A stretch of 64,000 nucleotides of DNA from Clostridia bacterium (GTDB lineage Bacteria > Bacillota > Clostridia > Oscillospirales > CAG-382): NCBI GenBank assembly GCA_017625615.1, contig JAGAKP010000018.1, forward strand, positions 2,454-66,453, given 5' to 3'. Shown here piece by piece: positions 7,811-63,700 of the stretch. The notes under the pieces were generated by a model, which ran no database searches, was not told where the DNA came from, and saw only the letters and a program-made list of their open reading frames with translations. A program made the position numbers and the translations under genes. Position 1 is the first letter of the stretch. Each line of letters opens with the position of its first letter.

Positions 7811-8944
7811 ATGAAGGCTATTATCAACGGCAAAATAATTCTTAAAGACCGCATCGTAGAGGGCAAGGTCCTCGTTTACGACGACGTTATCCGCGGCGTA
7901 TGCGACGTTGCTCCCGAAGGCGCGGAGGTTATCGACGCAAAGGGCGGCTACGTTGCCCCCGGTCTTATTGATCTTCACATTCACGGCTATCTCGGCAAGG
8001 ACGTTTGCGACGGTGAGCCCGAAAGCATCCGTACCATCGCAGAGGGTATCGTAGCAAACGGCGTTACCGGCTTCCTTCCCACTACCATGACGGTAGATAT
8101 GCAGGTCATCCGCAAGGCGCTTGAGTGTCTGCGCAGCCTCAAGGAAGAAAGCAAGACCTGGAACGGCACCGCAATTCTCGGCTGCCACGCAGAGGGTCCC
8201 TTTATCAACGCAAAGAAGAAGGGCGCGCAGGACGAAAAGTACATACTCAAGCCCGACGCAGCTTTCGTTAAGGAATATGCAGATATCATCAAGATAATCT
8301 CTCTCGCTCCCGAAATGGACGAGGATTTCGCCGCTATCCGCGAGATCGTTGCGGATACCGACGTTGTGGTTTCCATGGGTCATACCGATGCTGATTACGA
8401 TACCGCTTACAAGGCAACCGTAAACGGCGTTTCCCACGCAACCCACCTTTTCAACGCTATGACCGCTCTCGCTCACCGTAACCCCGGCGTAGTTGGCGCG
8501 GCTCTTAATTCCGACGTTACTACCGAGCTTATCGTGGACACCTTCCACGTAAACCCCGCTCTGTATCCCATCTTAGCAAAGCTGAAGGGTGACAAGCTCT
8601 GCTTTATTACCGACTGTCTCCCCGCAGGCGGTCTTCCCGAAGGACAGTACACCCTCGGCGGCACCGCATTCATTTCCAAGGGAATCGAATGCAGACTGCT
8701 TGACGGTACTATCGCAGGAAGCATCCTTAAGCTCAACAAGGGTGTCTGGAACGTATACACCAACACCGACCTGCCCTTGTGGTACTGCGTAAACTGCGCA
8801 TCCCTCAACCCTGCAAACGCTATCGGCATGGGAGATACCAAGGGCTCTCTCGATATCGGCAAGGACGCTGATATTATTATCACCGACAATGAATTTAACG
8901 TAGAAAAAACTATTATCGGAGGCACAGTAAGATATGAAGCTTAA
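7811..8944 (+). CDS. nagA: N-acetylglucosamine-6-phosphate deacetylase
   Basis: Amidohydrolase metal motif GLIDLHIHGY, plus the HLFNAM and GSLDIGKDADI motifs typical of NagA. The ATG at 7811 is about 10 nt after a GGAGGA RBS. Confidence 0.85.
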   Translation: MKAIINGKIILKDRIVEGKVLVYDDVIRGVCDVAPEGAEVIDAKGGYVAPGLIDLHIHGYLGKDVCDGEPESIRTIAEGIVANGVTGFLPTTMTVDMQVIRKALECLRSLKEESKTWNGTAILGCHAEGPFINAKKKGAQDEKYILKPDAAFVKEYADIIKIISLAPEMDEDFAAIREIVADTDVVVSMGHTDADYDTAYKATVNGVSHATHLFNAMTALAHRNPGVVGAALNSDVTTELIVDTFHVNPALYPILAKLKGDKLCFITDCLPAGGLPEGQYTLGGTAFISKGIECRLLDGTIAGSILKLNKGVWNVYTNTDLPLWYCVNCASLNPANAIGMGDTKGSLDIGKDADIIITDNEFNVEKTIIGGTVRYEA

Positions 8945-10313
8945 AGTAAATGCTGTTCTTGATCCCCAGTTCCAGCCCCTTTCTCTCCTCTGCCGCGAAA
9001 TGCGCGAGGCAACCAAGGATAACGGTCAGGATCTCGTAATCGGTATCCAGAGAAACAAGGGCTATATCACCACTTACAAAACCAGAATTTATCCCGACGG
9101 AATCGGCAAGGATGAAGAAAATATCAATTTTGTTGACCGTCTCGTAAAGAGCCTTCTTTGGGTTGCCGGCGGTTATAAGATCATCATCGCAGGCTCCAAG
9201 GTAGTAGGCGAAAATATCAAGGCTGCTTACGCAAAGGGCGGCTCCAGAGATTTCGATAACGGCTTTATGTCTCGCGTATACGAAACCGAATTCGAGGTTG
9301 AGCTTCGCGATATCGCAGACGCTCCCGTAGATTATAACTCTCCCGCTCCCGTTGGCAGACATCTTGACGGCTGCCGTATCGGCTTTGACGCAGGCGGAAG
9401 CGACCGTAAGGTTTCCGCTGTTATCGACGGCGAAGCCGTATATTCCGAGGAAGTCGTTTGGTTCCCCAAGATCAACTCCGATCCCAACTACCACTACGAA
9501 GGCATCCTCTCCGCTATGAAGAGTGCCGCTGAGCATATGCCCAGAGTAGACGCTATCGGCGTTTCCTCCGCAGGCGTATATATCGATAACAAGATAATGG
9601 TAGCTTCTCTCTTCCTCAAGGTTCCCGACGATCAGTTCGATAAGTGCGTAAAGAATATGTATATCGACGTTGCAAAGGAACTCGGCGAGAATATTCCCAT
9701 CGAGGTTGCAAACGACGGTGACGTTACCGCTCTCGCAGGCGCAATGGATCTTGACGATACCAACGTTCTCGGCGTAGCTATGGGTACCTCCGAAGCAGGC
9801 GGATACGTTGACGGTCAGGGCAACATCACCGGCTGGCTCAACGAGCTCGCTTTCGTTCCCGTTGACAACTGCAAGAACGCTATGGTTGACGAACGGTCCG
9901 GCGATTACGGCTGCGGCGTTAAATACTTCTCTCAGGACGGCGTTATCAAGCTTGCTCCCTTCGCAGGCATCGAGCTTGACGAAAGCCTTTCTCCCGCAGA
10001 AAAGCTTAAGGTTGTTCAGAACCTTATGAAGGAAGGCGACGAAAGAGCTGCAAAGATCTACGAGACCATCGGCGTATACTTCGGCTATGCTATCGCATAC
10101 TACACCGAATTCTACGATATCAAGCACGTTCTCATTATGGGCCGTGTTACCAGCGGTGAGGGCGGCGTTATCCTTCTCGCAAAGGCGCAGGAGGTTCTCG
10201 ACGTTGAATTCCCCGAGCTTGCAAAGAAGATCACCCTCCACATTCCCGATGAATCCTCTCGTCGCGTAGGCCAGTCCGTTGCAGCTGCAAGCCTCCCCGA
10301 CCTCGGCAAATAA
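8934..10313 (+). CDS. ROK-family / ASKHA-fold sugar kinase-like protein
   Basis: GFDAGGSDRK phosphate-1 motif and VANDGDVTALAGA ROK-like motif. It overlaps nagA by 11 nt, suggesting an amino-sugar utilisation pair. Confidence 0.72.
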   Translation: MKLKVNAVLDPQFQPLSLLCREMREATKDNGQDLVIGIQRNKGYITTYKTRIYPDGIGKDEENINFVDRLVKSLLWVAGGYKIIIAGSKVVGENIKAAYAKGGSRDFDNGFMSRVYETEFEVELRDIADAPVDYNSPAPVGRHLDGCRIGFDAGGSDRKVSAVIDGEAVYSEEVVWFPKINSDPNYHYEGILSAMKSAAEHMPRVDAIGVSSAGVYIDNKIMVASLFLKVPDDQFDKCVKNMYIDVAKELGENIPIEVANDGDVTALAGAMDLDDTNVLGVAMGTSEAGGYVDGQGNITGWLNELAFVPVDNCKNAMVDERSGDYGCGVKYFSQDGVIKLAPFAGIELDESLSPAEKLKVVQNLMKEGDERAAKIYETIGVYFGYAIAYYTEFYDIKHVLIMGRVTSGEGGVILLAKAQEVLDVEFPELAKKITLHIPDESSRRVGQSVAAASLPDLGK

Positions 10314-10327
10314 AACGCAATTTAACA

Positions 10328-10370
10328 CCATCGAGTTTAAACTTATAGAAGTAGACTCGATGGCGTTTTT
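10328..10370 (+). terminator. probable intrinsic terminator after the ROK-kinase gene
   Basis: CCATCGAGT ... ACTCGATGG 9-bp stem (the loop is long, about 18 nt) followed by CGTTTTTACTTTT. Confidence 0.55.
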
Positions 10371-10386
10371 ACTTTTACGGTGTATA

Positions 10387-10415
10387 TTGACAAAAATCAA
10401 CTTTTCTGGTAAACT
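10387..10415 (+). promoter_or_regulatory. sigma-A type promoter of the four-gene AT-rich operon
   Basis: TTGACA, a 17-nt spacer ending in TGG (extended -10), then TAAACT; 45 nt upstream of the first ATG. Confidence 0.5.
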
Positions 10416-10459
10416 TTTTTGTGAAGAATTATTAAGATTTATGATGTGAGGGCGTTACA

Positions 10460-11437
10460 ATGAATTTTGCAATGGTCGGATACGGATATTGGGGACGTAT
10501 ACTGTTAAAAGCGTTTAATGACAGCAACAAACATCGAGTGACTCATTTAGCTGATCGTAATATAGATAAACTACTGCAAGCTAAAAGCATTTATCCCGAT
10601 ATTGCTATTTTCACGAATATTGACGATATCGCATTCAACGGTGACGTTGATGCTGTAATAATATCGCTACCTGCAATTTATCACTTTAATTATGCAAAAC
10701 TTTGTTTAGAAAATGGTAAACATGTTCTTATAGAAAAACCAATGACATTAACCTACAACGAAGCTTATGAGTTGAATGAATTGGCTCAAAACCTAAATTT
10801 AGTGTTAATGGTCAATCATCACTTTATTTATAAAGATGCTATACGAAGTGTAAAGCAACATATACCGTCAAGTGTCGGAAAACTACAGTATTTCGATTCC
10901 ACGCGGACAAATTTAGGCATTTTCAGAACCGATGTGGACGTTGTTTTGGATTTGGCGCCTCACGACATTTCCATTTTGCTTTATCTTGCGGAAAAACTTC
11001 CTGAATCAGTTAGCGCAATTGCTAAAGCCAATGTTGTTCCGAACAGAAATGATATCGCTTATATAACATTGTATTTTGATGATTTTATGGCACACATTAA
11101 TGTTTCGTGGATATCTGCATTTAAAAATAGAACAATAATCTTTGGGTGTGAAAACGGTACTATTTGCTTTGATGATAATAAAAGTACGGAGAAGCTAACG
11201 ATTTCTCCTGTTAGATATGTTCGGAATAACGGAAAAATTGAGTGCATTAAAAACGAAGCTTTGATAACTGAAAATGATACAAGTAACGCTTTAATAAACG
11301 TTATCGATGAATTCGCAAGTGCGATTGAAACGGGGAGGCAACCCATATCTAACGGAGAATTTGGTATGGCTGTCGCTTTAATAATCGATGCAATACAAGC
11401 GTCTATAGCCAAAGATGGAATTATTATAAAACTTTGA
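10460..11437 (+). CDS. Gfo/Idh/MocA-family NAD(P)-dependent oxidoreductase
   Basis: N-terminal Rossmann MVGYGYWG, LIEKPMT (EKP motif) and DLAPHDISIL (D..H); 325 aa, a typical length for sugar or NDP-sugar dehydrogenases of this family. Confidence 0.85.
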   Translation: MNFAMVGYGYWGRILLKAFNDSNKHRVTHLADRNIDKLLQAKSIYPDIAIFTNIDDIAFNGDVDAVIISLPAIYHFNYAKLCLENGKHVLIEKPMTLTYNEAYELNELAQNLNLVLMVNHHFIYKDAIRSVKQHIPSSVGKLQYFDSTRTNLGIFRTDVDVVLDLAPHDISILLYLAEKLPESVSAIAKANVVPNRNDIAYITLYFDDFMAHINVSWISAFKNRTIIFGCENGTICFDDNKSTEKLTISPVRYVRNNGKIECIKNEALITENDTSNALINVIDEFASAIETGRQPISNGEFGMAVALIIDAIQASIAKDGIIIKL

Positions 11438-11449
11438 GGTATTTATGTT

Positions 11450-12796
11450 ATGATATGGTTGATTGACTATAACCATTATAAAAAGGAAATTGATAGCCGA
11501 CTCAACAAGTGTAAACAAGACTATTTTATAGTTAAGAGTTATAAACGCTTTAATATTATTGGCGAAACCGCACCTGTAAAAACCAAAACTTTTTCGAACG
11601 GTCTATTGCGGCTTGCAACCATTTTAGATGCCAACGGAATTTGCGTCAGATATATGCATTACAATATGCTTGAATTTGCGTTAAACAACGGAGAACCACT
11701 TCCGGAAACTATAGCATTTTCTGCCGTTTGCCCAACCGTACCGTTGTGTGCGGCTTTAGCGCAACGAATTAAGGCGGTCTCTCCAAAAACGAAAGTAATG
11801 ATTGGAGGTGCACATATCAACGTAGCGGCGAAAGAAACAGCAAATCGTTACCCGATTTTCGATAAGTTGGTTATAGGATACGAAATGGATGCCGCACAGC
11901 AGTTGACAGATAAAAAGTTGACTGTATGCCCAAAGCCATACGTCAACTATTCTTTGTTGCCTTTTTCGCTCGCAGATTATGCGATCAATACGTTCACTAC
12001 TATGGGATGCCCCTTTTCTTGTAATTATTGTGTGGATGGACGTGCGCCGCATTTCTTTTCAAGTGAAAACGGTCAATTAGATGAAATGGTCAAGTTGTTA
12101 CCGTTAAGAACACTGGTCCATTTTTTTGATAGCGTGCTGGGTTATTCTCGGGATGGTTTAAAAAATGTTTGTAAACAAATAGAAGCCACCAAACATAATT
12201 TCGTATTAAGTTGTGATATGAGAGCCGACATGATCGACTTAGATGCCATTTACGCTTTGGAGAGTGCGGGCTTTGTCGAAATTCGTTTGGGTATGGAGAG
12301 TAGCGATTCCGATTTGCTTAAGAAAAATGGTAGAACCCTAATGTATCGCAAACTGATGGAAAAATTAGAATTATTATACTCAAAATCAAAGCTTTATGTT
12401 ACGCTATATACCATCACTGGATTGCCTGGAACCACATGGGAAATTCAAGAAAATACCCTTAAGGAATGTGATTATTTATTATCGAGCGGTCTTGTGGACG
12501 AGATTAAAAATTCTTTGTATGTTCCATACCCTATGGAGGGTGTAGATTATAGTACGCGCGGCGTAACCATTTTGAATGACAATTGGGAAGACTATGACCG
12601 ACAAAGTTATCCGGTTTATCGCACTGTCGAGTTGAGTTCTGCTGAGTTGTGGGAGATGTATATTAAAACAGCGGAAAGCATCAACACCAGCTGGCTGAAA
12701 AGCATTGGCTTTTCCGATTTTTCGGAAGTTCCATACAATCCAACCTATTATTCGGAATATATAATTCCAAACTATTTGAAAGATGAGGGAGAATAA
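11450..12796 (+). CDS. radical SAM enzyme with N-terminal B12-binding-type (Rossmann-like) domain
   Basis: CPFSCNYC CxxxCxxC cluster motif and LGMESSDSDLL. The N-terminal IAFSAVCPT...VMIGGAHI segment resembles the cobalamin-binding-like domain of class B / COG1032 radical SAM proteins. A GAGGT RBS lies 12 nt after the upstream stop. Confidence 0.85.
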   Translation: MIWLIDYNHYKKEIDSRLNKCKQDYFIVKSYKRFNIIGETAPVKTKTFSNGLLRLATILDANGICVRYMHYNMLEFALNNGEPLPETIAFSAVCPTVPLCAALAQRIKAVSPKTKVMIGGAHINVAAKETANRYPIFDKLVIGYEMDAAQQLTDKKLTVCPKPYVNYSLLPFSLADYAINTFTTMGCPFSCNYCVDGRAPHFFSSENGQLDEMVKLLPLRTLVHFFDSVLGYSRDGLKNVCKQIEATKHNFVLSCDMRADMIDLDAIYALESAGFVEIRLGMESSDSDLLKKNGRTLMYRKLMEKLELLYSKSKLYVTLYTITGLPGTTWEIQENTLKECDYLLSSGLVDEIKNSLYVPYPMEGVDYSTRGVTILNDNWEDYDRQSYPVYRTVELSSAELWEMYIKTAESINTSWLKSIGFSDFSEVPYNPTYYSEYIIPNYLKDEGE

Positions 12797-12797
12797 T

Positions 12798-14717
12798 ATG
12801 GCTTATGATACTTTTATTTGCTACAGAGGACAGAAAGTTGATGATGGAATCAGCGAGAAGATTGGCAGACGAATATACGAGCTAATAAAAAACGATGAGG
12901 ACTTCGGCGAGGTATTTTTTGCGCCCGAGTTGAAGAATAACTATAACTTTATCGAAGATACAAAAACTATTATGCCTAACTTAAAAAGAATGATAGTCGT
13001 TCTCTGTCCTGACTTTTTTGACGGAATAAACAAATCGGATACGCTTACCGATGCATCCCCGATATACCACGAGTTTTTCCAAGCGTTCAAAAATGAAAAA
13101 TGTGTTTTTATACCTGTGTTTGTTTATGGTTTCACTTGGAAAGATGACATTTTAGTTACATTAAAAAGGTATTTTTCAGAAAATGATCTTAATCGTATTG
13201 TTCACATGAGTGGTTTAAGATTGGCGGGCAACGAGTTTAAAGAAACCGACGTGAAATATTTAATGTCTGTGTGTGAAGGCGGTGATACTATTTCGCGAAA
13301 CGTTATAGATATGTGTATTGATGACCTCAAAGCTTGTAGTACCACTGTGGGGGATGCTATTGTCCCGTTAGATAAAAATACGTTAGAAACCGATTATTAT
13401 TCATATCTATATTACTGCGATCGCGAAAACACGCGATTCTTCCCAAAACTATTTTTGGATACGCTCAATGTCTGTATAAAAAATTTTAGTATTGTTGACA
13501 GCGATTTCGTTTATTGGCCTATTGACTTGGTTGAACGAGAATACGCTGACAAGGACATTAGTATATGTTCGATTTGCTTCGGAATAATGATTTTGAATAA
13601 TTGGCTAAATAAAGATATTCAATATACAAACTGCGCTGTGGATACTGCAACAGAACGTGCGTTTCAATCTGCAATTAATGGTGCTATGAATTTACTGATT
13701 TCATTGCGTTCTCCGAAATGTTATTCTTGGCCATCTATTTGGGAATTTGATAAGAAGAGCGTTGAAGGCACTATCAACCAAACAACACTTAGCTTATCTA
13801 CCCTTTTGAGTGGTGGCTTTTTATCTTTCCCTTCAAATCTTGAAGAAGACATACGAAAAGATGTTTTTTTAAAAAGATATAATTTCATCGCTCAAAGTGC
13901 TGACTGGCTGATACGGTCGAGTAACTATAGTACTTTTCTAGACAAAAGGTCTTGGGGATATATGGCGACTAATAAAACATCGGCAATACTTCCTACTGCA
14001 TTTGCGTTTGATACTTTACTCAAATTCAAAAAATGCTTAGAGGTTGCTCTTCCTGAATTTGACAATGATTGCAAGCAAAATGAGTTAAGACTGTATATGG
14101 ACAAACTACAAGTAATACTTTCTTCTACTATTAATTATTTTAAACATACCCAAAATAGTTCTGACGGTTATTTTATGAGTCCAACTGGCGAACCTTCAAT
14201 TACTCATACGTCGAAGGTTTTGAAATCGTTAGTAACATACGCAAGAAATTCAGAGCCCAATGAAATGGTAGACGAAATGATAGGAAAAGCTTTTTGTTTT
14301 TTGATTAATAAAGATTCTGCTGCTGTTATGAATTTGCCCAAAAATGAAATGTTTGAGCGCTTTCAATACACCGAAAAAAATTCTGTTAACTTATGTGGCG
14401 AAACTGAACTGGATAAGAATGATGGAGAGGACTATGAAAATTGTGGCGAGTTATTGTATTTGGATGCTTTGCTTAATGCTCATGGGTATTATAAGACTGT
14501 AGGAAATTCCCCGAGTCTCGGATTCGAAAATAAGGTTTGTGAGATTTGGAAACTGATTCGAGAAAGAAACGTAAAGCGAACTCCCGACAATTGGTTAATA
14601 TATGCTGGGAAACGTTCAGCCTATCCCAAATATCCGATATATTCTCTGTATTATTATAGGATGGTTTGTTCGGATATAATAGAATACAATGCATGGAGTA
14701 ATAGAGAAAATGTTTGA
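12798..14717 (+). CDS. TIR-domain protein fused to a large alpha/alpha-toroid-like (prenyltransferase/terpene-cyclase-repeat-like) C-terminal domain
   Basis: The N-terminus YDTFICYRGQ...MIVVLCPDFF...IYHEFF follows the TIR beta-A/beta-C/Glu layout. The C-terminal about 480 aa shows repeats such as RSWGYMATNKTSAILPTAFAFDTLL and SSDGYFMSPTGEPSITHTSKVLKSLV, which resemble the prenyltransferase/squalene-cyclase repeat. The ATG at 12798 follows a GAGGGAG RBS, 1 nt after the upstream stop. Confidence 0.78.
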   Translation: MAYDTFICYRGQKVDDGISEKIGRRIYELIKNDEDFGEVFFAPELKNNYNFIEDTKTIMPNLKRMIVVLCPDFFDGINKSDTLTDASPIYHEFFQAFKNEKCVFIPVFVYGFTWKDDILVTLKRYFSENDLNRIVHMSGLRLAGNEFKETDVKYLMSVCEGGDTISRNVIDMCIDDLKACSTTVGDAIVPLDKNTLETDYYSYLYYCDRENTRFFPKLFLDTLNVCIKNFSIVDSDFVYWPIDLVEREYADKDISICSICFGIMILNNWLNKDIQYTNCAVDTATERAFQSAINGAMNLLISLRSPKCYSWPSIWEFDKKSVEGTINQTTLSLSTLLSGGFLSFPSNLEEDIRKDVFLKRYNFIAQSADWLIRSSNYSTFLDKRSWGYMATNKTSAILPTAFAFDTLLKFKKCLEVALPEFDNDCKQNELRLYMDKLQVILSSTINYFKHTQNSSDGYFMSPTGEPSITHTSKVLKSLVTYARNSEPNEMVDEMIGKAFCFLINKDSAAVMNLPKNEMFERFQYTEKNSVNLCGETELDKNDGEDYENCGELLYLDALLNAHGYYKTVGNSPSLGFENKVCEIWKLIRERNVKRTPDNWLIYAGKRSAYPKYPIYSLYYYRMVCSDIIEYNAWSNRENV

Positions 14718-15453
14718 TAACGAACTGAAAATCGGCAGCTGGAATGTCGGATCAATGCTTTCTGATATAGAGAGAAACTTGCATTTTGTTAAGGAAACTA
14801 TCAAAGAGCATAATCCTGATGTTATTTGCTTTCAAGAGTTCCCCGATATAAAGGAGATTCGAGAGGAGATTTTAAATTCAGTAGGATACGGCAGCAGCGT
14901 GTTTAAAGTCATGTCCGAGAGTCATGTTGCACCCGGTTTGAATGTGGGGTTGTTCGTTTGTTCAAAGTATGAATTGACCTCAAGTATTATTCACAAACTT
15001 CTCAAACCCATAACCAGAGTTTATTATAATGGCAACGAGGAATTTTGGCACGATAAATTCTTTTTAAAAACCGGTATCAGTTTAAACGGAATGCAAGTAG
15101 CTATTGTCACAGGACATAGCTTCCCGTTTTATAGATATAAACTGGATGAAAAAGAATACGATTGGGTTTTCAATAGTATTGAAGATTGGATTATTGATTG
15201 TTGCAACGAAAGTACGTTTATAGTTGCTGCGGACTTTAATAGTGGAAATCCTATGGATTATATGTCGAGGATATCACAGCATAATGTCGACGCTTTCTAC
15301 GGACAGGCGACTCGTCCCAGCGGTAGGAAAACAGATGCTATTATCATCCCAAATGGTTTTATCATTAAAAGCAAAATCAATGAAACTATTGAAAGTAAAA
15401 ATGCAGCCGGTAGATTTGATCATAATTTTCTTATGCTTCATTTAGCGCTATAA
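14689..15453 (+). CDS. endonuclease/exonuclease/phosphatase (EEP) family protein
   Basis: IGSWNVGS, ICFQEFP, VTGHSFP, AADFNSGN and RFDHNFL form the N / E / H / D-N / D-H catalytic set of the DNase I/AP-endonuclease/phosphatase fold. The start is either 14689 or 14710; both overlap the TIR gene stop. Confidence 0.8.
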   Translation: MHGVIEKMFDNELKIGSWNVGSMLSDIERNLHFVKETIKEHNPDVICFQEFPDIKEIREEILNSVGYGSSVFKVMSESHVAPGLNVGLFVCSKYELTSSIIHKLLKPITRVYYNGNEEFWHDKFFLKTGISLNGMQVAIVTGHSFPFYRYKLDEKEYDWVFNSIEDWIIDCCNESTFIVAADFNSGNPMDYMSRISQHNVDAFYGQATRPSGRKTDAIIIPNGFIIKSKINETIESKNAAGRFDHNFLMLHLAL

Positions 15454-15574
15454 AGTGATTTTACATTTATTGTGGTTTTCAGCTAAAAGCGTCAAACTAA
15501 TTTGATTGCATTTTATAGTTGAAAGTATTTACCGTGTTTTATTGTGTTTTCATAAAAATAATGGGGGTTTTACT

Positions 15575-17608
15575 ATGAAAAAGAAAATTGCTTTTATTCT
15601 TGCATCCGTTTTATTAGGTACTACCTTGTGCGCTTTCCCCGTATCGGCTGAAAGCTACGACGTGGATTTCACCTGCAATATAACCGGTTACGACCAGAAG
15701 ACCTCGTCGGGATGTGTTGTCGTATATCCCAACAACACCGATTCTACCCGCGTTATCGGTTCCAGCGAGTATGCGTTCCGTTATGCAAAGCTTCTTATAT
15801 TCGATAAAAACGGCACTCTTATCGAGGCGGGCGGAGATCTGCTTGCCAACGAAAACGGCGTATACGGCTCTCCCCAGCTTACCGTAAAGATCCCCGCAGG
15901 CGGATTTATGGTAGCATATACCTCCGGAGCACCCTCGGGACTTTCCCAGTGCTACACCACCGCGATGGAAGGCGCAATGCTGTATAACGCCACCATGTCC
16001 GTTATTTATCCCGTTCACGGCGAATACAATAAGTCTACCAACAAGCTCCGCATAGCTTACGATAATCCCGTTGCTCCCTCCAAGGATGCAATAAAGTTCC
16101 TTTTCGTTGGTAACAGTACCACTTATTTCAACGGTATTCCCATAAAGTTCAAGGGACTCTGCCAAGCCGCAGGCGTTGAGGTGGTAGTCGATTACTGTAC
16201 CGACGGCAGCGCATTCCTTCAGGAATTTGCAGATCCTTCCCATACCCGCGGAAAGAAGTTCCGCAGTATGCTTAACGCAAAGAAATACGATTACGTGGTT
16301 CTGCAGGATGCCGCAGGCGCCGCATATAACAAAATGGAAGAATCCGTCGGCATAATGCTTCCTCTTATCGAAGCGAACGGCGCCACCGCCCTTCTTTATA
16401 TGCGCTATTCCAACGATCTTGACGCCTCCACCCGCGTAAATTCCTTCTATAAGCATTACCGCAATTACTCCCGCCTTGCCGATAAGTACGATCTTGAATA
16501 TTCTCCCGTTGCAAGCGCGTTCCTTAAGTGCATAGAAACCGCCCCCTCCATCAACCTTTTTGCAGATGACGGCGGACATCACTCCTGGGAAGGCAGTTAT
16601 CTTGCCGCTTGTACCTGGCTGTATTCCTATCTCGGCATCGACCCACGCGGAAACGCATATACCGCAAACCTTCCTTCCTCCACAGCAACCACACTGCAGA
16701 ATATAGCTTACGATATTGCAAAGAACGGATATCCTTATCCCGAGGAAGGCAGTGCAAACAAGGTTATTGACGGGGTTAAGTACGATAACCTCTCTCTTAA
16801 AAAGCCATATACCTCCGATGGCGCCACATATTCCGGAGATTGGACCGATACGGGCGCAGACGGCAAGCCCTTGGGCAAGTTTACCGATGGCTACGGCACT
16901 CTTACCGCCGCGGGCAGCGTCGGTGAATGCGGATGCTACAAGGGACAAAACGTAAATATAACCATCGACCTCGGCAAGGTCACCTCCGTAAAACAGGTCA
17001 CCACCGACCTTTTCGGTAACAGCGACTGGGGTATTCCTTCTCCTGCAGATGCAGGCGTAAAGGTATCCTTCTCCAATGACGGAAAGAATTTTGCCGAAGC
17101 GAAGGCACTCACAGGCGGAAGCGTTTCCAAGTCCGATTCTTGGGAAAAGCGTGATTTCACCGTCACCTTCTCCGAAATGCAGGAAGCAAGATACGTTCGC
17201 GTCGAGTATACCATTACAGGTAAATTCCTCTGGGTAAGTGAAATAAGCGTTTTCGGTAAGGATGCAAGCACCGTTTCTCCCGACGTTTCCGAACCCGATA
17301 CCGACGTATCCGTTCCCGAGGAATCGAAAGAGGATACCTCCGTGCCCGAAGAATCCGTACCTGAGGAGTCCGTACCCGAGGAAAGCGTTGCTCCCAACGA
17401 AAGCATTGCTCCCAACGAAAGCGTTGCTCCCAACGAGAGCGCGTCCGACGATGAAAGCACGCCCGCCGACGTATCCGAAAAGAGCGAGGCCGCTTCTGCC
17501 GATACCGATAAAAAGGGCGGCAGCACCGGCTGGATAATCGCCGCAGTAGGCGCCGTTGTTGCAGTAGCCGCAGTGGCAGCAGTGGTTATTTTCAGGAAAA
17601 AGAAATAG
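15575..17608 (+). CDS. secreted, membrane-anchored surface protein (SGNH-like domain + discoidin/F5-8 type C-like domain + acidic Pro/Glu/Ser repeats)
   Basis: Signal peptide MKKKIAFILASVLLGTTLCAFPVSA after a GGGGG RBS. It carries an FVGNSTTYFNG SGNH-like motif, a YVRVEY...WVSEISVFG carbohydrate-binding-module-like segment, VPEES/VAPNES repeats, and a C-terminal TM helix followed by RKKK. Confidence 0.72.
   Translation: MKKKIAFILASVLLGTTLCAFPVSAESYDVDFTCNITGYDQKTSSGCVVVYPNNTDSTRVIGSSEYAFRYAKLLIFDKNGTLIEAGGDLLANENGVYGSPQLTVKIPAGGFMVAYTSGAPSGLSQCYTTAMEGAMLYNATMSVIYPVHGEYNKSTNKLRIAYDNPVAPSKDAIKFLFVGNSTTYFNGIPIKFKGLCQAAGVEVVVDYCTDGSAFLQEFADPSHTRGKKFRSMLNAKKYDYVVLQDAAGAAYNKMEESVGIMLPLIEANGATALLYMRYSNDLDASTRVNSFYKHYRNYSRLADKYDLEYSPVASAFLKCIETAPSINLFADDGGHHSWEGSYLAACTWLYSYLGIDPRGNAYTANLPSSTATTLQNIAYDIAKNGYPYPEEGSANKVIDGVKYDNLSLKKPYTSDGATYSGDWTDTGADGKPLGKFTDGYGTLTAAGSVGECGCYKGQNVNITIDLGKVTSVKQVTTDLFGNSDWGIPSPADAGVKVSFSNDGKNFAEAKALTGGSVSKSDSWEKRDFTVTFSEMQEARYVRVEYTITGKFLWVSEISVFGKDASTVSPDVSEPDTDVSVPEESKEDTSVPEESVPEESVPEESVAPNESIAPNESVAPNESASDDESTPADVSEKSEAASADTDKKGGSTGWIIAAVGAVVAVAAVAAVVIFRKKK
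17314..17440 (+). repeat. in-frame tandem repeats inside the surface-protein gene
   Basis: 15-nt units encoding VPEES (x3-4) followed by three 18-nt units GAAAGC(G/A)TTGCTCCCAAC encoding ES(V/I)APN. Confidence 0.7.
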
Positions 17609-18529: not shown

Positions 18530-21031
18530 ATGAGCGAAAGAAACGAATCCAGCGTTGAGGATATACTTAAACGGTTGCAGCACGTGTCTGCCGAAAACGA
18601 TACTGCACGTCATATTCCCATGCCCTCGGGCGGCTATAAGGCTCCCGACGGGAATTCAATGCTTGAAAAAACCAAATCGGTGGACGGGAACATTCCCACC
18701 CGCACCGAAACCGAGGATATTATTGATAAATACTCCTCCCGCGTAAAGATACAAGATGAAAAATCCTCCACTCAGGGCTTGCGCGATGCCCTTGAGGCAC
18801 GTATGGAGGACGACGCGGAGCTTAAGAATTATTATTACGGCAACAAGGACAAGCCTATGAAGAGCCGCCGTGCAGACGAGCTCTTTGCACTTATCGACCG
18901 TGCCACGGTGGACACCATCGGTCAGGCAGAGAAAAAGCCTGCGGAAATAGACACCTCCCGCTTTATGGATCCCGAAACGGTGGAAAAGCCCGTGGAATAC
19001 AAGCAGGAAGAGCTGTTCCCCATGGGCGACACCATGCCCCCTCAGGAGGACAACCGTGAGACTGCCACCTTTGACGACGACTACGCAGGACTTTCCGAGC
19101 GTGTGGTAAGCGGCAAGATCGGCTTGGAGGACGAGGACGATACTCAGCTCAGCCTCGTTTCCGAGGATAGCGACGATATCAACGTCGGTGACGGCTTGCT
19201 TGATACCAAGGATATCGGCTTGAAGATCGCTTTGGGTGAAATAGATATCGAAAGCGACGAGGTGCCCGAGGCAATCCGCGAAAAATACAAAAAGGCAGAA
19301 AACGAAGTTAACAAGAATAACGGCGAGTACGAATATACCGACAGAGCGCAGAACAACGAGGTCAACCGCCTTATGCGCCGCGGCATCCGACACGCCTTCC
19401 GCCGTCTTATTGCGGCAATACTTATTACTTTGGGTATCGTTTATCTTGAGCTTGCCACCAAGGGAGGCGCGGGATACTCAATATACCTCAGTCAGGGACG
19501 GTACGGTGTTCTGTATATCCTTGCGGATCTTCAGGTGCTGTTCTTCCTCGGTATGGTGCTTATGCCTTACCTCTCCAAGGGTGCAAAAGGCTTGTTTACC
19601 TTTAATCTTACGGCAGACAGCGTGTTCTTCTTCTCCTTCGTCGCCAGTGCGGGCTATTGTCTGGTAAGAGCGTTTATGTCTCCCACGGATCCCGATTTGC
19701 ATCTGTTCAACCTTACGGCGGCAATGTGCGGCATCTGCTCCGCGCTTATACATTATCTCACCGCCAAGAAGGATTACGCCTGCTTCAAGGTTATCGCTTC
19801 CGCAAAAAGCAAGTATGCGGCGGCACAGATATCCGGAGCATCCCGCGAATCCGATGAGTTTTATTCATATCTTCTTGAGGACAGCGATATTTACACCGTC
19901 CGCAAGACAAAGTTTATAAGCGGATTCTTCGCACGTCTCAAAAAACGTCCCAAGAGCGAGGACCTGTTCAACTTCCTGCTTCCCTTCGTGATGGTTGCCG
20001 CTATAGCCGCCCTTGCGGTAAAGGCTATTATGGGCGGAACCATGCTTGAATCTGTAAACGGCGCAATGTTTACTTTGGCAGTGGGACTTCCTCTTTCCGC
20101 CTTCTTTATAATCGCAATGCCCCTTTGCACTGCAAACCGCAGAGCAAACCGCTCCTCCTCCTGCTTTATCGGTCCCGCCGTTGCAGAGGAATATGCGGAC
20201 GCTTCCGTTATCTCCTTTGCGGATACGGAGGTATATCCCTCCCACCTCGTAAAGATAACCAGCTTCCGCACCTACGGAGATTTCCGTATCGACCGTATGC
20301 TTATCGAGCTTTCACGTATCTTCAACTACGTGGGCGGACCTCTCGAAAAGGTTCTGTCTTCCACCATAACCGAGCCCGTAGAGCCTGCACAGTACATCCG
20401 CGTTCTTGAGTCTGCCTCCGACGGACTCCGCGTGGTTCTTGACGGTAAGGAGTATTTCATCGGAAAGCGCGCCTATATGCGCCGCTACCGCTTTGAGGCT
20501 CCCAAGGACGAGATAGACGATATGTACGAAAACAGCGTCGGCTCCGTAATGTTCGTTTCGGTAGGGGATCATCTGGCGGTAAAGCTGTACATCAAGTATT
20601 CCATCAACCCGTTGTTTGACGAATTGCTTCGCGATATGAACAAATCGGGCTTGTGCGTTGGAATAAAAACACTTGACCCCAATATAAATAACGATCTCCT
20701 TGCAAACGGTATTAAATATAAGAAGTGCCCCATCGCCATCCTCAAGGCGGGCAACCCCGAGGATATGACGAAGGTATCCAAGGAAATAGATTCCGGTATC
20801 GTTACAAACTCCGGACTTCATAATTTCCTGCGTATTTTCGCTCTGTGCGATAAGACGCGTCATATCATAAAGAGCAACGCTATGATATGCGTTATCGGCA
20901 CGGTGCTGTCACTTGTGGCGGCAGGATTTATGCTTTTCGTGGGGGATACGAGCAATATTCCCTCGGTCTATACGGTGCTGTTCCAGCTCGTTTGGGTGCT
21001 CCCCGTATGGCTGCTTTCGATGATTTTGTAA
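18530..21031 (+). CDS. polytopic membrane protein resembling a catalytically degenerate P-type ATPase, with a long acidic N-terminal extension
   Basis: 833 aa. The first about 290 aa are acidic and low-complexity, followed by at least 8 hydrophobic helices. The segment SFADTEVYPS sits where P-type ATPases carry DKTGTLT, and FVSVGDHLAVKLYIKYSINPLFDELLRDMNKSGLCVGIKTLDPN sits where they carry the ...TGD hinge region. This is a by-eye alignment only. Confidence 0.55.
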   Translation: MSERNESSVEDILKRLQHVSAENDTARHIPMPSGGYKAPDGNSMLEKTKSVDGNIPTRTETEDIIDKYSSRVKIQDEKSSTQGLRDALEARMEDDAELKNYYYGNKDKPMKSRRADELFALIDRATVDTIGQAEKKPAEIDTSRFMDPETVEKPVEYKQEELFPMGDTMPPQEDNRETATFDDDYAGLSERVVSGKIGLEDEDDTQLSLVSEDSDDINVGDGLLDTKDIGLKIALGEIDIESDEVPEAIREKYKKAENEVNKNNGEYEYTDRAQNNEVNRLMRRGIRHAFRRLIAAILITLGIVYLELATKGGAGYSIYLSQGRYGVLYILADLQVLFFLGMVLMPYLSKGAKGLFTFNLTADSVFFFSFVASAGYCLVRAFMSPTDPDLHLFNLTAAMCGICSALIHYLTAKKDYACFKVIASAKSKYAAAQISGASRESDEFYSYLLEDSDIYTVRKTKFISGFFARLKKRPKSEDLFNFLLPFVMVAAIAALAVKAIMGGTMLESVNGAMFTLAVGLPLSAFFIIAMPLCTANRRANRSSSCFIGPAVAEEYADASVISFADTEVYPSHLVKITSFRTYGDFRIDRMLIELSRIFNYVGGPLEKVLSSTITEPVEPAQYIRVLESASDGLRVVLDGKEYFIGKRAYMRRYRFEAPKDEIDDMYENSVGSVMFVSVGDHLAVKLYIKYSINPLFDELLRDMNKSGLCVGIKTLDPNINNDLLANGIKYKKCPIAILKAGNPEDMTKVSKEIDSGIVTNSGLHNFLRIFALCDKTRHIIKSNAMICVIGTVLSLVAAGFMLFVGDTSNIPSVYTVLFQLVWVLPVWLLSMIL

Positions 21032-61894: not shown

Positions 61895-61971
61895 GTCCCA
61901 ATAGCTCAGTTGGATAGAGCACACGCCTCCTAAGCGTGGGGTCGGAGGTTCAAGTCCTCTTTGGGACGCCA
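61895..61971 (+). tRNA. tRNA-Arg (anticodon CCU)
   Basis: GTCCCAA TA GCTC AGTTGGATA GAGC A CACGC CTCCTAA GCGTG GGGTC GGAGG TTCAAGT CCTCT TTGGGAC G CCA. The cloverleaf is canonical. Confidence 0.9.
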
Positions 61972-61980
61972 GCTAACAAC

Positions 61981-62019
61981 GCCGAAAGCCTTTGTTTTCA
62001 AGGGTTTTCGGCTTTTTTT
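61981..62019 (+). terminator. intrinsic terminator of the tRNA transcript
   Basis: GCCGAAAGCC ... GGTTTTCGGC 10-bp stem (one G.U) followed by TTTTTTT. Confidence 0.82.
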
Positions 62020-62132
62020 AACAAATTCCAGTGTGATTGCTGAGACGAAATAATGTTTTCAAATTTTACTTCAAATTCTGATTTTTGACAAGCCCTAAAA
62101 AATCGAACTGCTGTGATAAGACAAAAATTTCT

Positions 62133-62250
62133 GCTAATCATTAGCAGAAAAAGGGCCGTTTTTGCTAATGAAAATGCGCTTCCAGCTAATTAGGCGAAAA
62201 AACGTGCTAAAAACCTTGCTAATTCAAAAGGCGGATGTTCCGAGTGCTAA
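62133..62250. repeat. iterated GCTAA(T) motifs including a 17-bp perfect palindrome
   Basis: CTGCTAATCATTAGCAG palindrome at 62131-62147, then GCTAA at about 62164, 62185, 62206, 62218 and 62246. The 21-nt spacings recur. Confidence 0.45.
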
Positions 62251-62289
62251 GCCGTTATAAGAAATAAAATTGAATATTACCATGTACAT

Positions 62290-62340
62290 AGAGCGTCTAT
62301 TTGCCCCTGTATCGGGGATGGATAGACGCTCTTTTTTTAT
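62290..62340 (+). terminator. strong terminator-like hairpin upstream of the first ICE gene
   Basis: Perfect 11-bp stem AGAGCGTCTAT ... ATAGACGCTCT with an inner CCCC-tgtatc-GGGG hairpin, followed by TTTTTTT. Confidence 0.7.
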
Positions 62341-62384
62341 GCCCAAAATTCATGGGTAAATCTGAAAGATTGGAGGTTTGATTT

Positions 62385-62609
62385 TTGAGTAAAATCGTCT
62401 ATTCCCCAGACAAGCCAAACGACTGCCGCTACTGTCATTTTTGGAAAAACAATAAAACGGGCTGCTGTCTGGGCGAAGAAAATTGTTACTACTTAATCTC
62501 CGTATCCCCAAAGCCGAAGTCGGAATGTGAAGGTTGTCCTTATGGGCGGGATCATCCCTGCATCGGCTGGTGTACCAGGAAGATTATGAAGGAAGTGGGG
62601 GTGCGTTGA
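62385..62609 (+). CDS. cysteine-rich small protein (ICE-associated, VLP-type)
   Basis: 74 aa with 10 Cys in CxxC/CC patterns; TTG start after a GGAGG RBS. Genes of this kind precede RepA_N genes in Clostridia ICEs. Confidence 0.6.
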   Translation: MSKIVYSPDKPNDCRYCHFWKNNKTGCCLGEENCYYLISVSPKPKSECEGCPYGRDHPCIGWCTRKIMKEVGVR

Positions 62610-62610
62610 T

Positions 62611-62808
62611 ATGTATGAGTATGAACGCAATCGCCGTGACAAGCCGAAATGTTGCAAAGACTGCGAGTATTATCAACCCCGATGGAAGTACCGCTTCTGC
62701 TATTTTGTCAGATGTCCGTATAAACTGAAGGATACGACTTTCCGCAGAACCCCTCTGAAAAAAGAGTATTTCCCGCAGAAAGAGGTGGTGAGGATGAGTG
62801 ACGTATGA
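62611..62808 (+). CDS. cysteine-rich small protein (ICE-associated, KTR-type)
   Basis: 65 aa with CCKDCEYY...FCYFVRCPY. It starts 1 nt after the previous stop. Confidence 0.55.
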   Translation: MYEYERNRRDKPKCCKDCEYYQPRWKYRFCYFVRCPYKLKDTTFRRTPLKKEYFPQKEVVRMSDV

Positions 62809-63700
62809 TTATTTCTATGGGCAGCAAGCGGAGATGTTCGCATTCTACCGTGTTCCGAAGGTGCTATTCACCGAGGATTGCTTCTGGAATGTATCAACCG
62901 ATGCCAAGCTGCTTTACGGTATTCTGCTTGACCGCATGAACCTCTCAGCCCGGAACGGTTGGCTGGACGAGGAAGGCCGTGTCTATATCATCTTCACGAT
63001 TGAAGAAATCAAAGGTGCGTTAGGCTGTGCTGAAAAGAAAGCGGTGAAGCTGCTGGATGAGCTGGAAAAGAAATGCGGTCTGATAGAACGCAAGCGACAG
63101 GGACTTGGGAAACCGAACCTGATCTATGTAAAGAACTTCATTTCCGGTTCTGTGGAAAGACAATTCTTGAATTGTCAAAAGGACAATTCTGGAGTTGTCA
63201 AAAACACAATTCAAGAACTGTCAAAAGCACAAGGTAATAATACTGATACTAATTATATTGATTTTAGTGATACTGATCCTTTCTTTCCTTCCGGTTTTTG
63301 TGGAAAGGAAGTCGATGAGACTGACGAATTTACCCGATATTATCAGTATTTTTATGAACAGCTTTCTATGGACTATCTGAAACAGGATTATCCGTATGAC
63401 CATGAGATACTCGATCTAATTCTGCATTTGATTATTGAAGTCATGTGCAGTAATCGGAAGCAAATACGAATTGCCAGTGATGATAAGCCCATTGAAATTG
63501 TCAAAAGCAGTTTTATGAAGCTGGATTCTGAACACATCAGATTTGTAATGAGTTCTTTCAAAGAGAACACAACCGATGTTCGCAATATCAAGCAGTATTT
63601 ACTTGCTTCGATATACAATGCCCCCTACACCATAAGCGCCCACTATGACGCAAAGGTCAGGCATGATATGGCTTCGGGGAAACTTGGAGGGAGGTGGTAA
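62798..63700 (+). CDS. replication initiator protein A (RepA_N domain) with C-terminal DUF-like domain
   Basis: The N-terminal FYRVPKVLFTEDCFWNVSTDAKLLYGILLDRMNLS...GWLDEEGRVYIIFT pattern is the RepA_N winged-helix signature. Confidence 0.8.
   Translation: MTYDYFYGQQAEMFAFYRVPKVLFTEDCFWNVSTDAKLLYGILLDRMNLSARNGWLDEEGRVYIIFTIEEIKGALGCAEKKAVKLLDELEKKCGLIERKRQGLGKPNLIYVKNFISGSVERQFLNCQKDNSGVVKNTIQELSKAQGNNTDTNYIDFSDTDPFFPSGFCGKEVDETDEFTRYYQYFYEQLSMDYLKQDYPYDHEILDLILHLIIEVMCSNRKQIRIASDDKPIEIVKSSFMKLDSEHIRFVMSSFKENTTDVRNIKQYLLASIYNAPYTISAHYDAKVRHDMASGKLGGRW

Follow-up and report, generated by a model that had tools for sequence, protein, structure and literature searches.

A TIR-toroid fusion protein encoded with a radical SAM enzyme and an EEP-family enzyme in gut Clostridia, a candidate sensor-effector of a mobile conflict cassette

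The gene at positions 12798-14717 of a 64,000-nucleotide stretch of contig JAGAKP010000018.1 from a Clostridia bacterium (the whole stretch is hereafter the window) encodes a protein in which an N-terminal TIR domain is fused to an α/α toroid, and it belongs to a conserved cassette with genes for a B12-binding-domain radical SAM enzyme and an EEP-family enzyme. A defence or conflict role of one kind or another appears to us fairly probable. The particular interpretation that we prefer, tentatively and with a little less than even confidence, is that the three genes form a mobile conflict cassette with the product of this gene as its sensor-effector subunit: the enzymes would make a ligand and the toroid would sense it. 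Such a cassette would probably be an anti-phage system of the abortive-infection type. The features of the gene are listed here.

12798-14717, + strand: TIR-toroid open reading frame, 639 amino acids.
12798..13292, + strand: TIR domain, residues 1-165, assigned from the family profile, the AlphaFold model and PDB structure matches.
13071-13073, + strand: codon of the putative catalytic Glu92, assigned from its invariance and its alignment to the Glu of the SARM1 HKE motif.
13293..13499, + strand: helical linker or N-terminal cap, residues ~166-234, assigned from the secondary structure of the model and variable in the alignment.
13500..14717, + strand: (α/α)6 toroid, residues ~235-639, with at least five QW-like hairpin repeats, followed by the stop codon.

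An in-frame ATG lies upstream at 12783 and would give a 644-amino acid alternative. We place the start at 12798 because the public gene calls and all homologues begin with MAYDTF, in agreement with the coordinates given in a preliminary description of this DNA, and all six of the peptide strings quoted there are present in the translation. The protein had no match at E<0.1 in Pfam, NCBIfam or PADLOC, none in PHROGs and none in the PDB by single-sequence phmmer. Given the silence of Pfam, NCBIfam and PADLOC at that threshold, standard profiles cannot call the TIR domain, and family profiles and structure prediction are the sole informative routes to the domains. A search of 5.8 billion proteins returned 12 full-length relatives with 28-37% identity to the window protein, none of which carries a functional name (one is labelled 'hypothetical protein'). 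Three independent metagenome contigs carry the identical protein.

The N-terminus is a true TIR domain, as the preliminary description had proposed. A profile of 13 family members matches the TIR domain of a SARM1/TIR-1 chimera (PDB 8p2l) with E=4.4e-4. The AlphaFold model of residues 1-165 (pLDDT 85.5, pTM 0.84) superposes on solved TIR domains, which make up all 50 of its 50 best PDB matches and include RUN1 (E=1.5e-5), the SARM1 TIR (TM-score up to 0.74), TIR-1, RPS4, MyD88 and AbTir. In the 13-member full-length alignment, FICYR, F51, FF73-74 and E92 are invariant. Through the family profile, Glu92 aligns to the Glu of the HKE motif in the 8p2l TIR, which in SARM1 is the catalytic glutamate. 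The 16 TIR-only relatives, and the NB-ARC/TPR relatives that share just the TIR domain, all have this Glu as well. From this pattern of conservation, the domain probably retains catalytic capacity. The same TIR subtype occurs at the N-terminus of NB-ARC/TPR STAND proteins and in GDPD fusions, which are architectures typical of immune or conflict proteins.

The window protein does not reach the Pfam TIR or TIR_2 gathering score, and its relatives reach only E=0.008-0.05. Compared with the NADase TIRs of SARM1, plant TNL proteins and bacteria (RUN1, AbTir, ThsB), it has the same fold and the conserved Glu at the HKE position, but it falls below the Pfam TIR_2 threshold, has no PADLOC TIR match and is fused to an α/α toroid rather than to ARM/SAM, NB-ARC-LRR, SAVED, STING or APAZ modules. 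In contrast to ThsB, it has no ThsA-type partner, its partners being the radical SAM enzyme and the EEP-family enzyme.

The C-terminal ~400 residues form an α/α toroid. The full-length model (pLDDT 83.5, pTM 0.73) is helical from about residue 250 on, and a Foldseek search with it returned only (α/α)6 barrels, all at 8-12% identity and with E-values of 1e-4 to 1e-2. These comprise the GH8 exo-oligoxylanase, YihS/cellobiose 2-epimerase, the thioester domains of complement C3d, C4 and C5 (TM-score of 0.57-0.60 for C3d), GH76, GH105 and AGE, with squalene-hopene cyclase reached at rank 47. Considering that all these matches are remote, structure alone picks no superfamily for the toroid, which by this measure is about equally close to sugar isomerases, epimerases and six-hairpin glycosidases. 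A sequence profile of the window toroid and 25 TIR-less relatives does pick one: when it was searched against the PDB, its matches were confined to terpenoid-cyclase and prenyltransferase structures (7.7e-7 to 5e-3). The top matches were the SQHop_cyclase_C proteins 7xqz and 8zg5 (E=7.7e-7), followed by squalene-hopene cyclase 2sqc (E=3.6e-4) and the farnesyltransferase beta subunit (E=5.5e-4), with weaker matches to oxidosqualene cyclase, copalyl diphosphate synthase and the RabGGTase beta subunit. The match is carried by a unit of ~65 residues, 'Q..DGGF...S..hT..AL..L', and since this unit aligns to several repeats of each target, the periodic motif is real and of the type that the preliminary description had named. 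The window protein contains at least five hairpins with this common motif logic. Pfam Prenyltrans and SQHop_cyclase_C matches are faint and below threshold in relatives, and there are none in the window protein. Structure prediction followed by structure search, the check suggested at the outset, thus recovered both the TIR fold and the toroid.

Invariant positions across the broad toroid family are W311, P312, F341, R360, W386, E547 and a Tyr of the C-terminal YPIY motif; the TIR clade adds SxCxxCFG, GTINQTTLSLST, D405, K409, E544 and E551. The DxDD protonation motif of class II cyclases and the metal-binding DDxxD and NSE/DTE motifs of class I terpene synthases are absent throughout the window protein. 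As to the Asp/Cys/His zinc ligands of protein prenyltransferase beta subunits, the 13-member TIR-clade alignment has no invariant His, and C257 and C260, invariant in the TIR clade, vary in the toroid family at large. Catalysis of the terpene cyclase or synthase kind was rejected for lack of the three acidic motifs, and a family-wide metal or redox CxxC site was rejected for its restriction to the TIR clade; given both, the toroid is unlikely to be a terpene cyclase. It resembles the terpenoid cyclase and protein prenyltransferase superfamily in its (α/α)6 barrel and its hairpin repeat 'Q..DGG(F/W)...S..hT..AL..L', and differs from it as a single barrel of ~400 amino acids that lacks catalytic motifs and an invariant His. 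A thioester domain, as in complement or alpha-2-macroglobulin, was also rejected: the fold is alike, but there is no conserved CGEQ, and the sole CGE string of the window protein is a non-conserved CGET (about residues 529-532) in a loop with pLDDT <50.

It may be asked whether the protein is an artefact, either a mis-assembled or decaying gene or a set of generic helical repeats misread as a toroid. The lack of any direct Pfam, NCBIfam or PADLOC match and the remoteness of the structural matches would suit such an explanation, to which we give almost no credence. An identical protein on independent contigs, ~41 full-length representatives at 50% clustering, two confident models, many residues invariant in 13 members at about 30-40% identity to the window protein, and conserved partner genes all speak against it, and for practical purposes it is refuted.

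The partner genes adjoin the TIR-toroid gene on both sides, and the EEP gene overlaps its 3' end.

11450..12796, + strand: B12-binding-domain radical SAM enzyme, 448 amino acids (Pfam B12-binding 35.1 bits and Radical_SAM 40 bits, both above cut-off).
14689..15453, + strand: EEP-family enzyme, 254 amino acids, or 247 from an alternative start at 14710 (Pfam Exo_endo_phos 30.7 bits against a cut-off of 24.5).
10460..11437, + strand: GFO/IDH/MocA NAD(P) oxidoreductase, 325 amino acids (Pfam GFO_IDH_MocA, 5.6e-25).

The catalytic residues of both conserved enzymes are intact. In the radical SAM enzyme, C187-x3-C191-x2-C194 is invariant in 18 homologues. In the EEP-family enzyme, N19, E50, D182, N184, D216, D244 and H245 are invariant in 10 cassette members, and this Asn/Glu/Asp/Asn/Asp/Asp-His set is the canonical catalytic set of the family; the nearest solved structures are APE1 and ExoIII, at about 1e-6. 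The sole solved relative of the radical SAM enzyme is AprD4 (6fd2, E=5.6e-11), which also carries a B12-binding-type domain. The similarity is confined to the radical SAM core (residues 183-363, 45 bits). NCBIfam matches to PhpK, AprD4 and HpnJ all lie far below cut-off (49 against 500 bits for AprD4), the PhpK-type methyltransferase model scoring equal to AprD4, and the viperin models of NCBIfam and PADLOC gave no match. A PADLOC PDC-M51A match (20.6 bits) was not accepted as a system match, as it covers the B12-binding region only. Weak ApyD and rSAM_ocin matches led us to consider a cluster for a ribosomally synthesized and post-translationally modified peptide, which was rejected: the genes abut or overlap, with no conserved small precursor reading frame and no LanC-type or peptidase partner.

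AprD4 is a sugar diol dehydratase that is partnered by an NADPH reductase (PMC5461906). The parallel with AprD4/AprD3 of the apramycin pathway is an AprD4-like enzyme beside an NAD(P) oxidoreductase in the window, and the two resemble a dehydratase-plus-reductase pair; the window differs in having no aminoglycoside cluster. The GFO/IDH/MocA gene has a GC content of 0.35, like its immediate neighbours, and is absent from all other cassette loci. It was not retained as a core component, as it occurs in the version of this window only.

The radical SAM, TIR-toroid and EEP genes occur together in all 10 complete distinct loci from other metagenomes and metagenome-assembled genomes, and the same trio recurs in loci L025 and L046. 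The hosts are gut Clostridia (Oscillospiraceae, Faecousia). The location varies: gene order is permuted in one of the 10 loci and the flanks are unrelated (LexA/ImuB, FtsZ/MurG, xanthine permease, GH125/GH38). Among TIR-type cassettes, identity is 51-62% for the radical SAM enzyme, 27-37% for the TIR-toroid protein and 29-41% for the EEP-family enzyme; judged by these values, the radical SAM gene is the best conserved, and the sensor-effector gene evolves much faster. The preliminary description fared well in its domain calls and in regarding the architecture as uncatalogued, but it had taken the protein alone, and the protein is one gene of a conserved cassette. This linkage means that any mechanism must include both enzymes, and it leaves room for a biosynthetic, non-immune reading. 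As for locus L046 itself (JAMPHX010000013.1), the metagenome-assembled genome is labelled Corallococcus sp., whereas the contig has a GC content of about 0.48 and carries a cassette of the Clostridia type, which casts doubt on the label or on the binning.

In the window, the cassette lies in a GC-poor island of ~5 kb (0.37 compared with 0.48) that consists of four tightly packed, co-directional genes: GFO/IDH/MocA, radical SAM, TIR-toroid and EEP. Its composition is foreign to its surroundings, which are core chromosome (RuvB, EF-G, RecG, SbcC, Tex). Elsewhere, RhuM-family and integrase-like genes lie downstream of the cassette in L046, a transposase helix-turn-helix occurs in the neighbourhood of L036, and a faint nSTAND NTPase match in that of L022. 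Mobility is supported by the permuted order, the unrelated flanks, the GC contrast and these mobile-element or STAND-like neighbours.

An exhaustive profile search yielded 275 representatives, among them ~41 full-length TIR-toroid proteins (50% clustering) and a comparable number of toroid-only proteins of ~500 amino acids; the remaining representatives include many TIR-only proteins or TIRs in other fusions. Toroids without a TIR end differently: one or two C-terminal transmembrane-like segments are present in 24 of 25 TIR-less toroid representatives, compared with none of 46 TIR-toroid proteins. Four toroid-transmembrane locus types (L018, L021, L022 and L031-33) keep the same radical SAM and EEP genes. 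The constant core is, therefore, the radical enzyme, the phosphoesterase and the toroid, with the TIR as one of several appendages. In one 3.2-kb contig, a 607-amino acid protein (P0098) appears to fuse the cassette radical SAM enzyme to a shortened toroid without a TIR, matching the start (FxxWP...CxxCFG) and the end (YPIYxLYYYRM) of the toroid; the fusion may be genuine, or it may be an artefact of deletion or assembly.

Effectors of Pycsar, CBASS and Thoeris show such a pattern, in which one constant sensor domain carries either a TIR or membrane helices. Given that the toroid stays constant while C-terminal membrane helices replace the TIR, and that catalytic motifs are absent, the proposal that the TIR is under the control of the toroid, acting as a sensing or ligand-binding domain, gains indirect support and is plausible. 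The module swap, the immune-type TIR and the patchy, mobile distribution are our grounds for reading the cassette as a conflict system, and a sensor that evolves fast beside a slow enzyme, together with the precedent of Ophion described below, further backs it. In the mechanism that we envisage, the radical SAM enzyme would make or alter a small molecule, helped by the EEP-family enzyme and, in this window, by the GFO-type oxidoreductase. The molecule would most likely be derived from a sugar or a nucleotide. The catalytically silent toroid would bind it in its central cavity, and binding would change the assembly state of the fused TIRs; these might in turn use Glu92 to cleave NAD+ and so halt the cell. 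In the TIR-less sister clade, membrane helices would be the output that the toroid drives.

Like Pycsar, CBASS, Thoeris and the ancillary effectors of type III CRISPR, the cassette combines a constant putative sensor, alternative killing modules and adjoining conserved enzymes. It differs from them in its enzymes, a B12-binding radical SAM enzyme and an EEP-family enzyme instead of a nucleotide cyclase or a TIR signal synthase, and in its sensor, a toroid instead of a SAVED, CARF, STING, SLOG or cNMP-binding domain. Thoeris pairs the ThsB TIR with ThsA (SIR2 or transmembrane plus SLOG/Macro effector), unlike the neighbours found in the window, and no cassette protein has a PADLOC Thoeris match. 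A precedent in enzyme content is Ophion, a validated defence system of a radical SAM enzyme (OpnA), a PHP phosphoesterase (OpnB) and a PRTase (OpnC) that acts on nucleotides without abortive infection (bioRxiv 10.1101/2025.09.30.679545). In both systems, a radical SAM enzyme is linked with a phosphoesterase and with a type of enzyme that targets N-glycosidic bonds. Ophion has a viperin-related radical SAM enzyme with PHP and PRTase partners in Gammaproteobacteria, whereas the radical SAM enzyme of the window cassette has a B12 domain, is closest to AprD4 rather than to prokaryotic viperins, and has EEP and TIR-toroid partners in gut Clostridia.

Defence could also be wired differently. Like the repeat sensors of Avs/STAND proteins, the toroid may itself detect a phage protein or structure and turn on the TIR, with the two enzymes as parallel effectors: a viperin-like producer of modified (for example, deoxygenated) nucleotides and a nuclease or phosphatase. 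We consider this arrangement distinctly unlikely. It would suit the toroid fold of the complement thioester domains, which bind macromolecules, and the fast evolution of the sensor-effector gene, and the enzymes fit parallel effectors in that AprD4 dehydrates a sugar diol with a reductase and the window has an adjoining oxidoreductase, in that the solved structures nearest to the EEP-family enzyme are nucleases, and in that there is a precedent in Ophion, whose radical SAM enzyme and phosphoesterase target nucleotides with no abortive infection. However, independent effectors would not need a strict three-way linkage with a shared, non-variable toroid, the similarity to AprD4 extends over the radical SAM core only and is equalled by a PhpK-type model, and the oxidoreductase is missing from every other cassette.

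More distant versions bear on an explanation outside immunity. At L019/L020 (1-4125), a distant toroid-transmembrane protein (P0104) with faint Prenyltrans and SQHop_cyclase_C matches lies behind a ThiC-type radical SAM enzyme and an Fe-dependent alcohol dehydrogenase, which replace the B12-binding radical SAM enzyme and the EEP-family enzyme. In environmental loci reached through the radical SAM gene, proteins of ~1,080 amino acids adjoin a cassette-type radical SAM gene at L027 (8590-11850) and L045 (477-3716), with residues 1-253 matching the EEP profile; the L027 protein also carries Pfam Metallophos and a faint Prenyltrans match. L041 has the order radical SAM, EEP and a 765-amino acid Metallophos protein, and L036 encodes a 680-amino acid protein with a TED_complement match beside its transposase gene. 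When the L027, L036 and L041 proteins were aligned to the window toroid with hhalign, E-values of 0.01-0.09 were obtained on a single repeat, which is weakly suggestive of homology.

The cassette may accordingly be read as a small biosynthetic or cell-envelope pathway that acts on an isoprenoid, lipid-linked or sugar substrate, a reading that we rate as rather unlikely, though less so than direct sensing. The toroid would be a substrate-binding or catalytic subunit, anchored in the membrane in the transmembrane clade, the radical SAM enzyme would modify the substrate, the EEP-family enzyme would remove phosphate, and the TIR would act on a nucleotide-linked intermediate as an N-glycosidase or nucleosidase. 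A formally similar case is the synthesis of hopanoid side chains, for which squalene-hopene cyclase cooperates with the radical SAM enzyme HpnH and the nucleosidase HpnG. Terpenoid cyclases and prenyltransferases are the sole sequence-level relatives of the toroid, the radical SAM enzyme has a weak HpnJ-family match, and membrane anchoring of the TIR-less clade suits lipid substrates. The partners of the distant toroid-transmembrane protein at L019/L020 point the same way, as do the apparent fusions of toroid-like regions with phosphoesterases, the carbohydrate genes that often adjoin the cassette with no defence genes nearby, and a polyprenyl synthase gene 3.5 kb from one cassette. This last neighbour, however, is a single case, on the opposite strand and not conserved, and the toroid has neither the DxDD, DDxxD or NSE/DTE motifs nor an invariant His in the TIR-clade alignment. 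The TIR is a true SARM1/RUN1-like domain, common to STAND NTPases, and not like a nucleoside deoxyribosyltransferase, and it is hard to fit a pathway step by the TIR with a transmembrane clade that drops the TIR yet keeps both enzymes.

Some results count against a sensor-effector role in a conflict cassette. The toroid-like region of distant versions may have phosphoesterases (EEP and Metallophos) as fusion partners in place of a killing module, an arrangement as compatible with a pathway enzyme as with a sensor. Searches of phages, plasmids, IMG/VR viral contigs and PHROGs gave no match to the cassette. Ten flanking proteins from five loci had no PADLOC match and hence give no defence-island signal, most cassette neighbours are housekeeping or carbohydrate genes, and the cassette proteins themselves have nothing in PADLOC beyond one weak domain-level match.

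The left edge of the window island follows a terminator-like hairpin 3' of the upstream ROK gene and has one further feature.

10387..10415, + strand: promoter-like site (TTGACA, 17 nt, TAAACT, with TG) at the left island edge, a consensus match only.

This site has the top score in the region, and the number of such sites is not above that in shuffled controls. No meaningful direct or inverted repeats were found at the island borders, and no integrase in the island. Directly downstream, in the native flank (15506-17608), lies a gene for a 700-amino acid protein with F5/8 type C and weak DUF4886 matches, a signal-peptide-like N-terminal hydrophobic stretch, Pro/Glu/Ser-rich 'VPEES' repeats and a C-terminal hydrophobic anchor. 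The gene at 18530-21031, kept beside the island in contig L006, encodes an 833-amino acid protein that has no Pfam match; its N-terminal half is acidic, and stretches towards its C-terminus are apparently hydrophobic. At the far end of the window (61895-63700), tRNA-Arg(CCT) is followed by a RepA_N/DUF6017 replication-initiator-like gene in a stretch of lower GC content (0.43), which probably marks the border of an integrated element of plasmid-like or conjugative type. In L022, directly 3' of the toroid-transmembrane cassette (8927-13617), genes for a 1,238-amino acid protein (with the faint match, to nSTAND NTPase5) and a 325-amino acid protein without assignment are possibly a neighbouring defence gene pair.

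Targeted full-text literature searches found no description of the TIR-toroid fusion or of the radical SAM-toroid-EEP cassette, and PADLOC (2023), Pfam and NCBIfam hold no model for the TIR-toroid protein; together with the lack of a PHROGs match, this bears out the expectation that the architecture is uncatalogued. The cassette looks like a conflict system that has a TIR as its output and in which the sensor fold and the enzymatic partners are new. A bolder form of the proposal, which we think improbable in its full extent, is that the B12-domain radical SAM enzyme and the EEP-family enzyme convert a cellular sugar or nucleotide, by radical chemistry, to a messenger on infection, with a dead terpene-cyclase-type toroid as the receptor that drives interchangeable TIR and membrane effectors. 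If true, this would be the first case of a second messenger made by radical SAM chemistry, and immunity would gain its first toroid receptor.

TIR domains hold a central place in animal, plant and bacterial innate immunity, and new modes of TIR control have revealed new signalling chemistry; here, a TIR is coupled to a domain type not linked to TIRs before, within a broader toroid family of a few hundred representative clusters. With three or four genes in about 5 kb, the system is small enough for direct testing, and either outcome would be informative. A biosynthetic role would make this a rare true TIR employed outside immunity. With a role in defence, bacterial immunity would gain a new sensor fold and, probably, a new radical chemistry, in gut Clostridia, whose phage defence is poorly explored.

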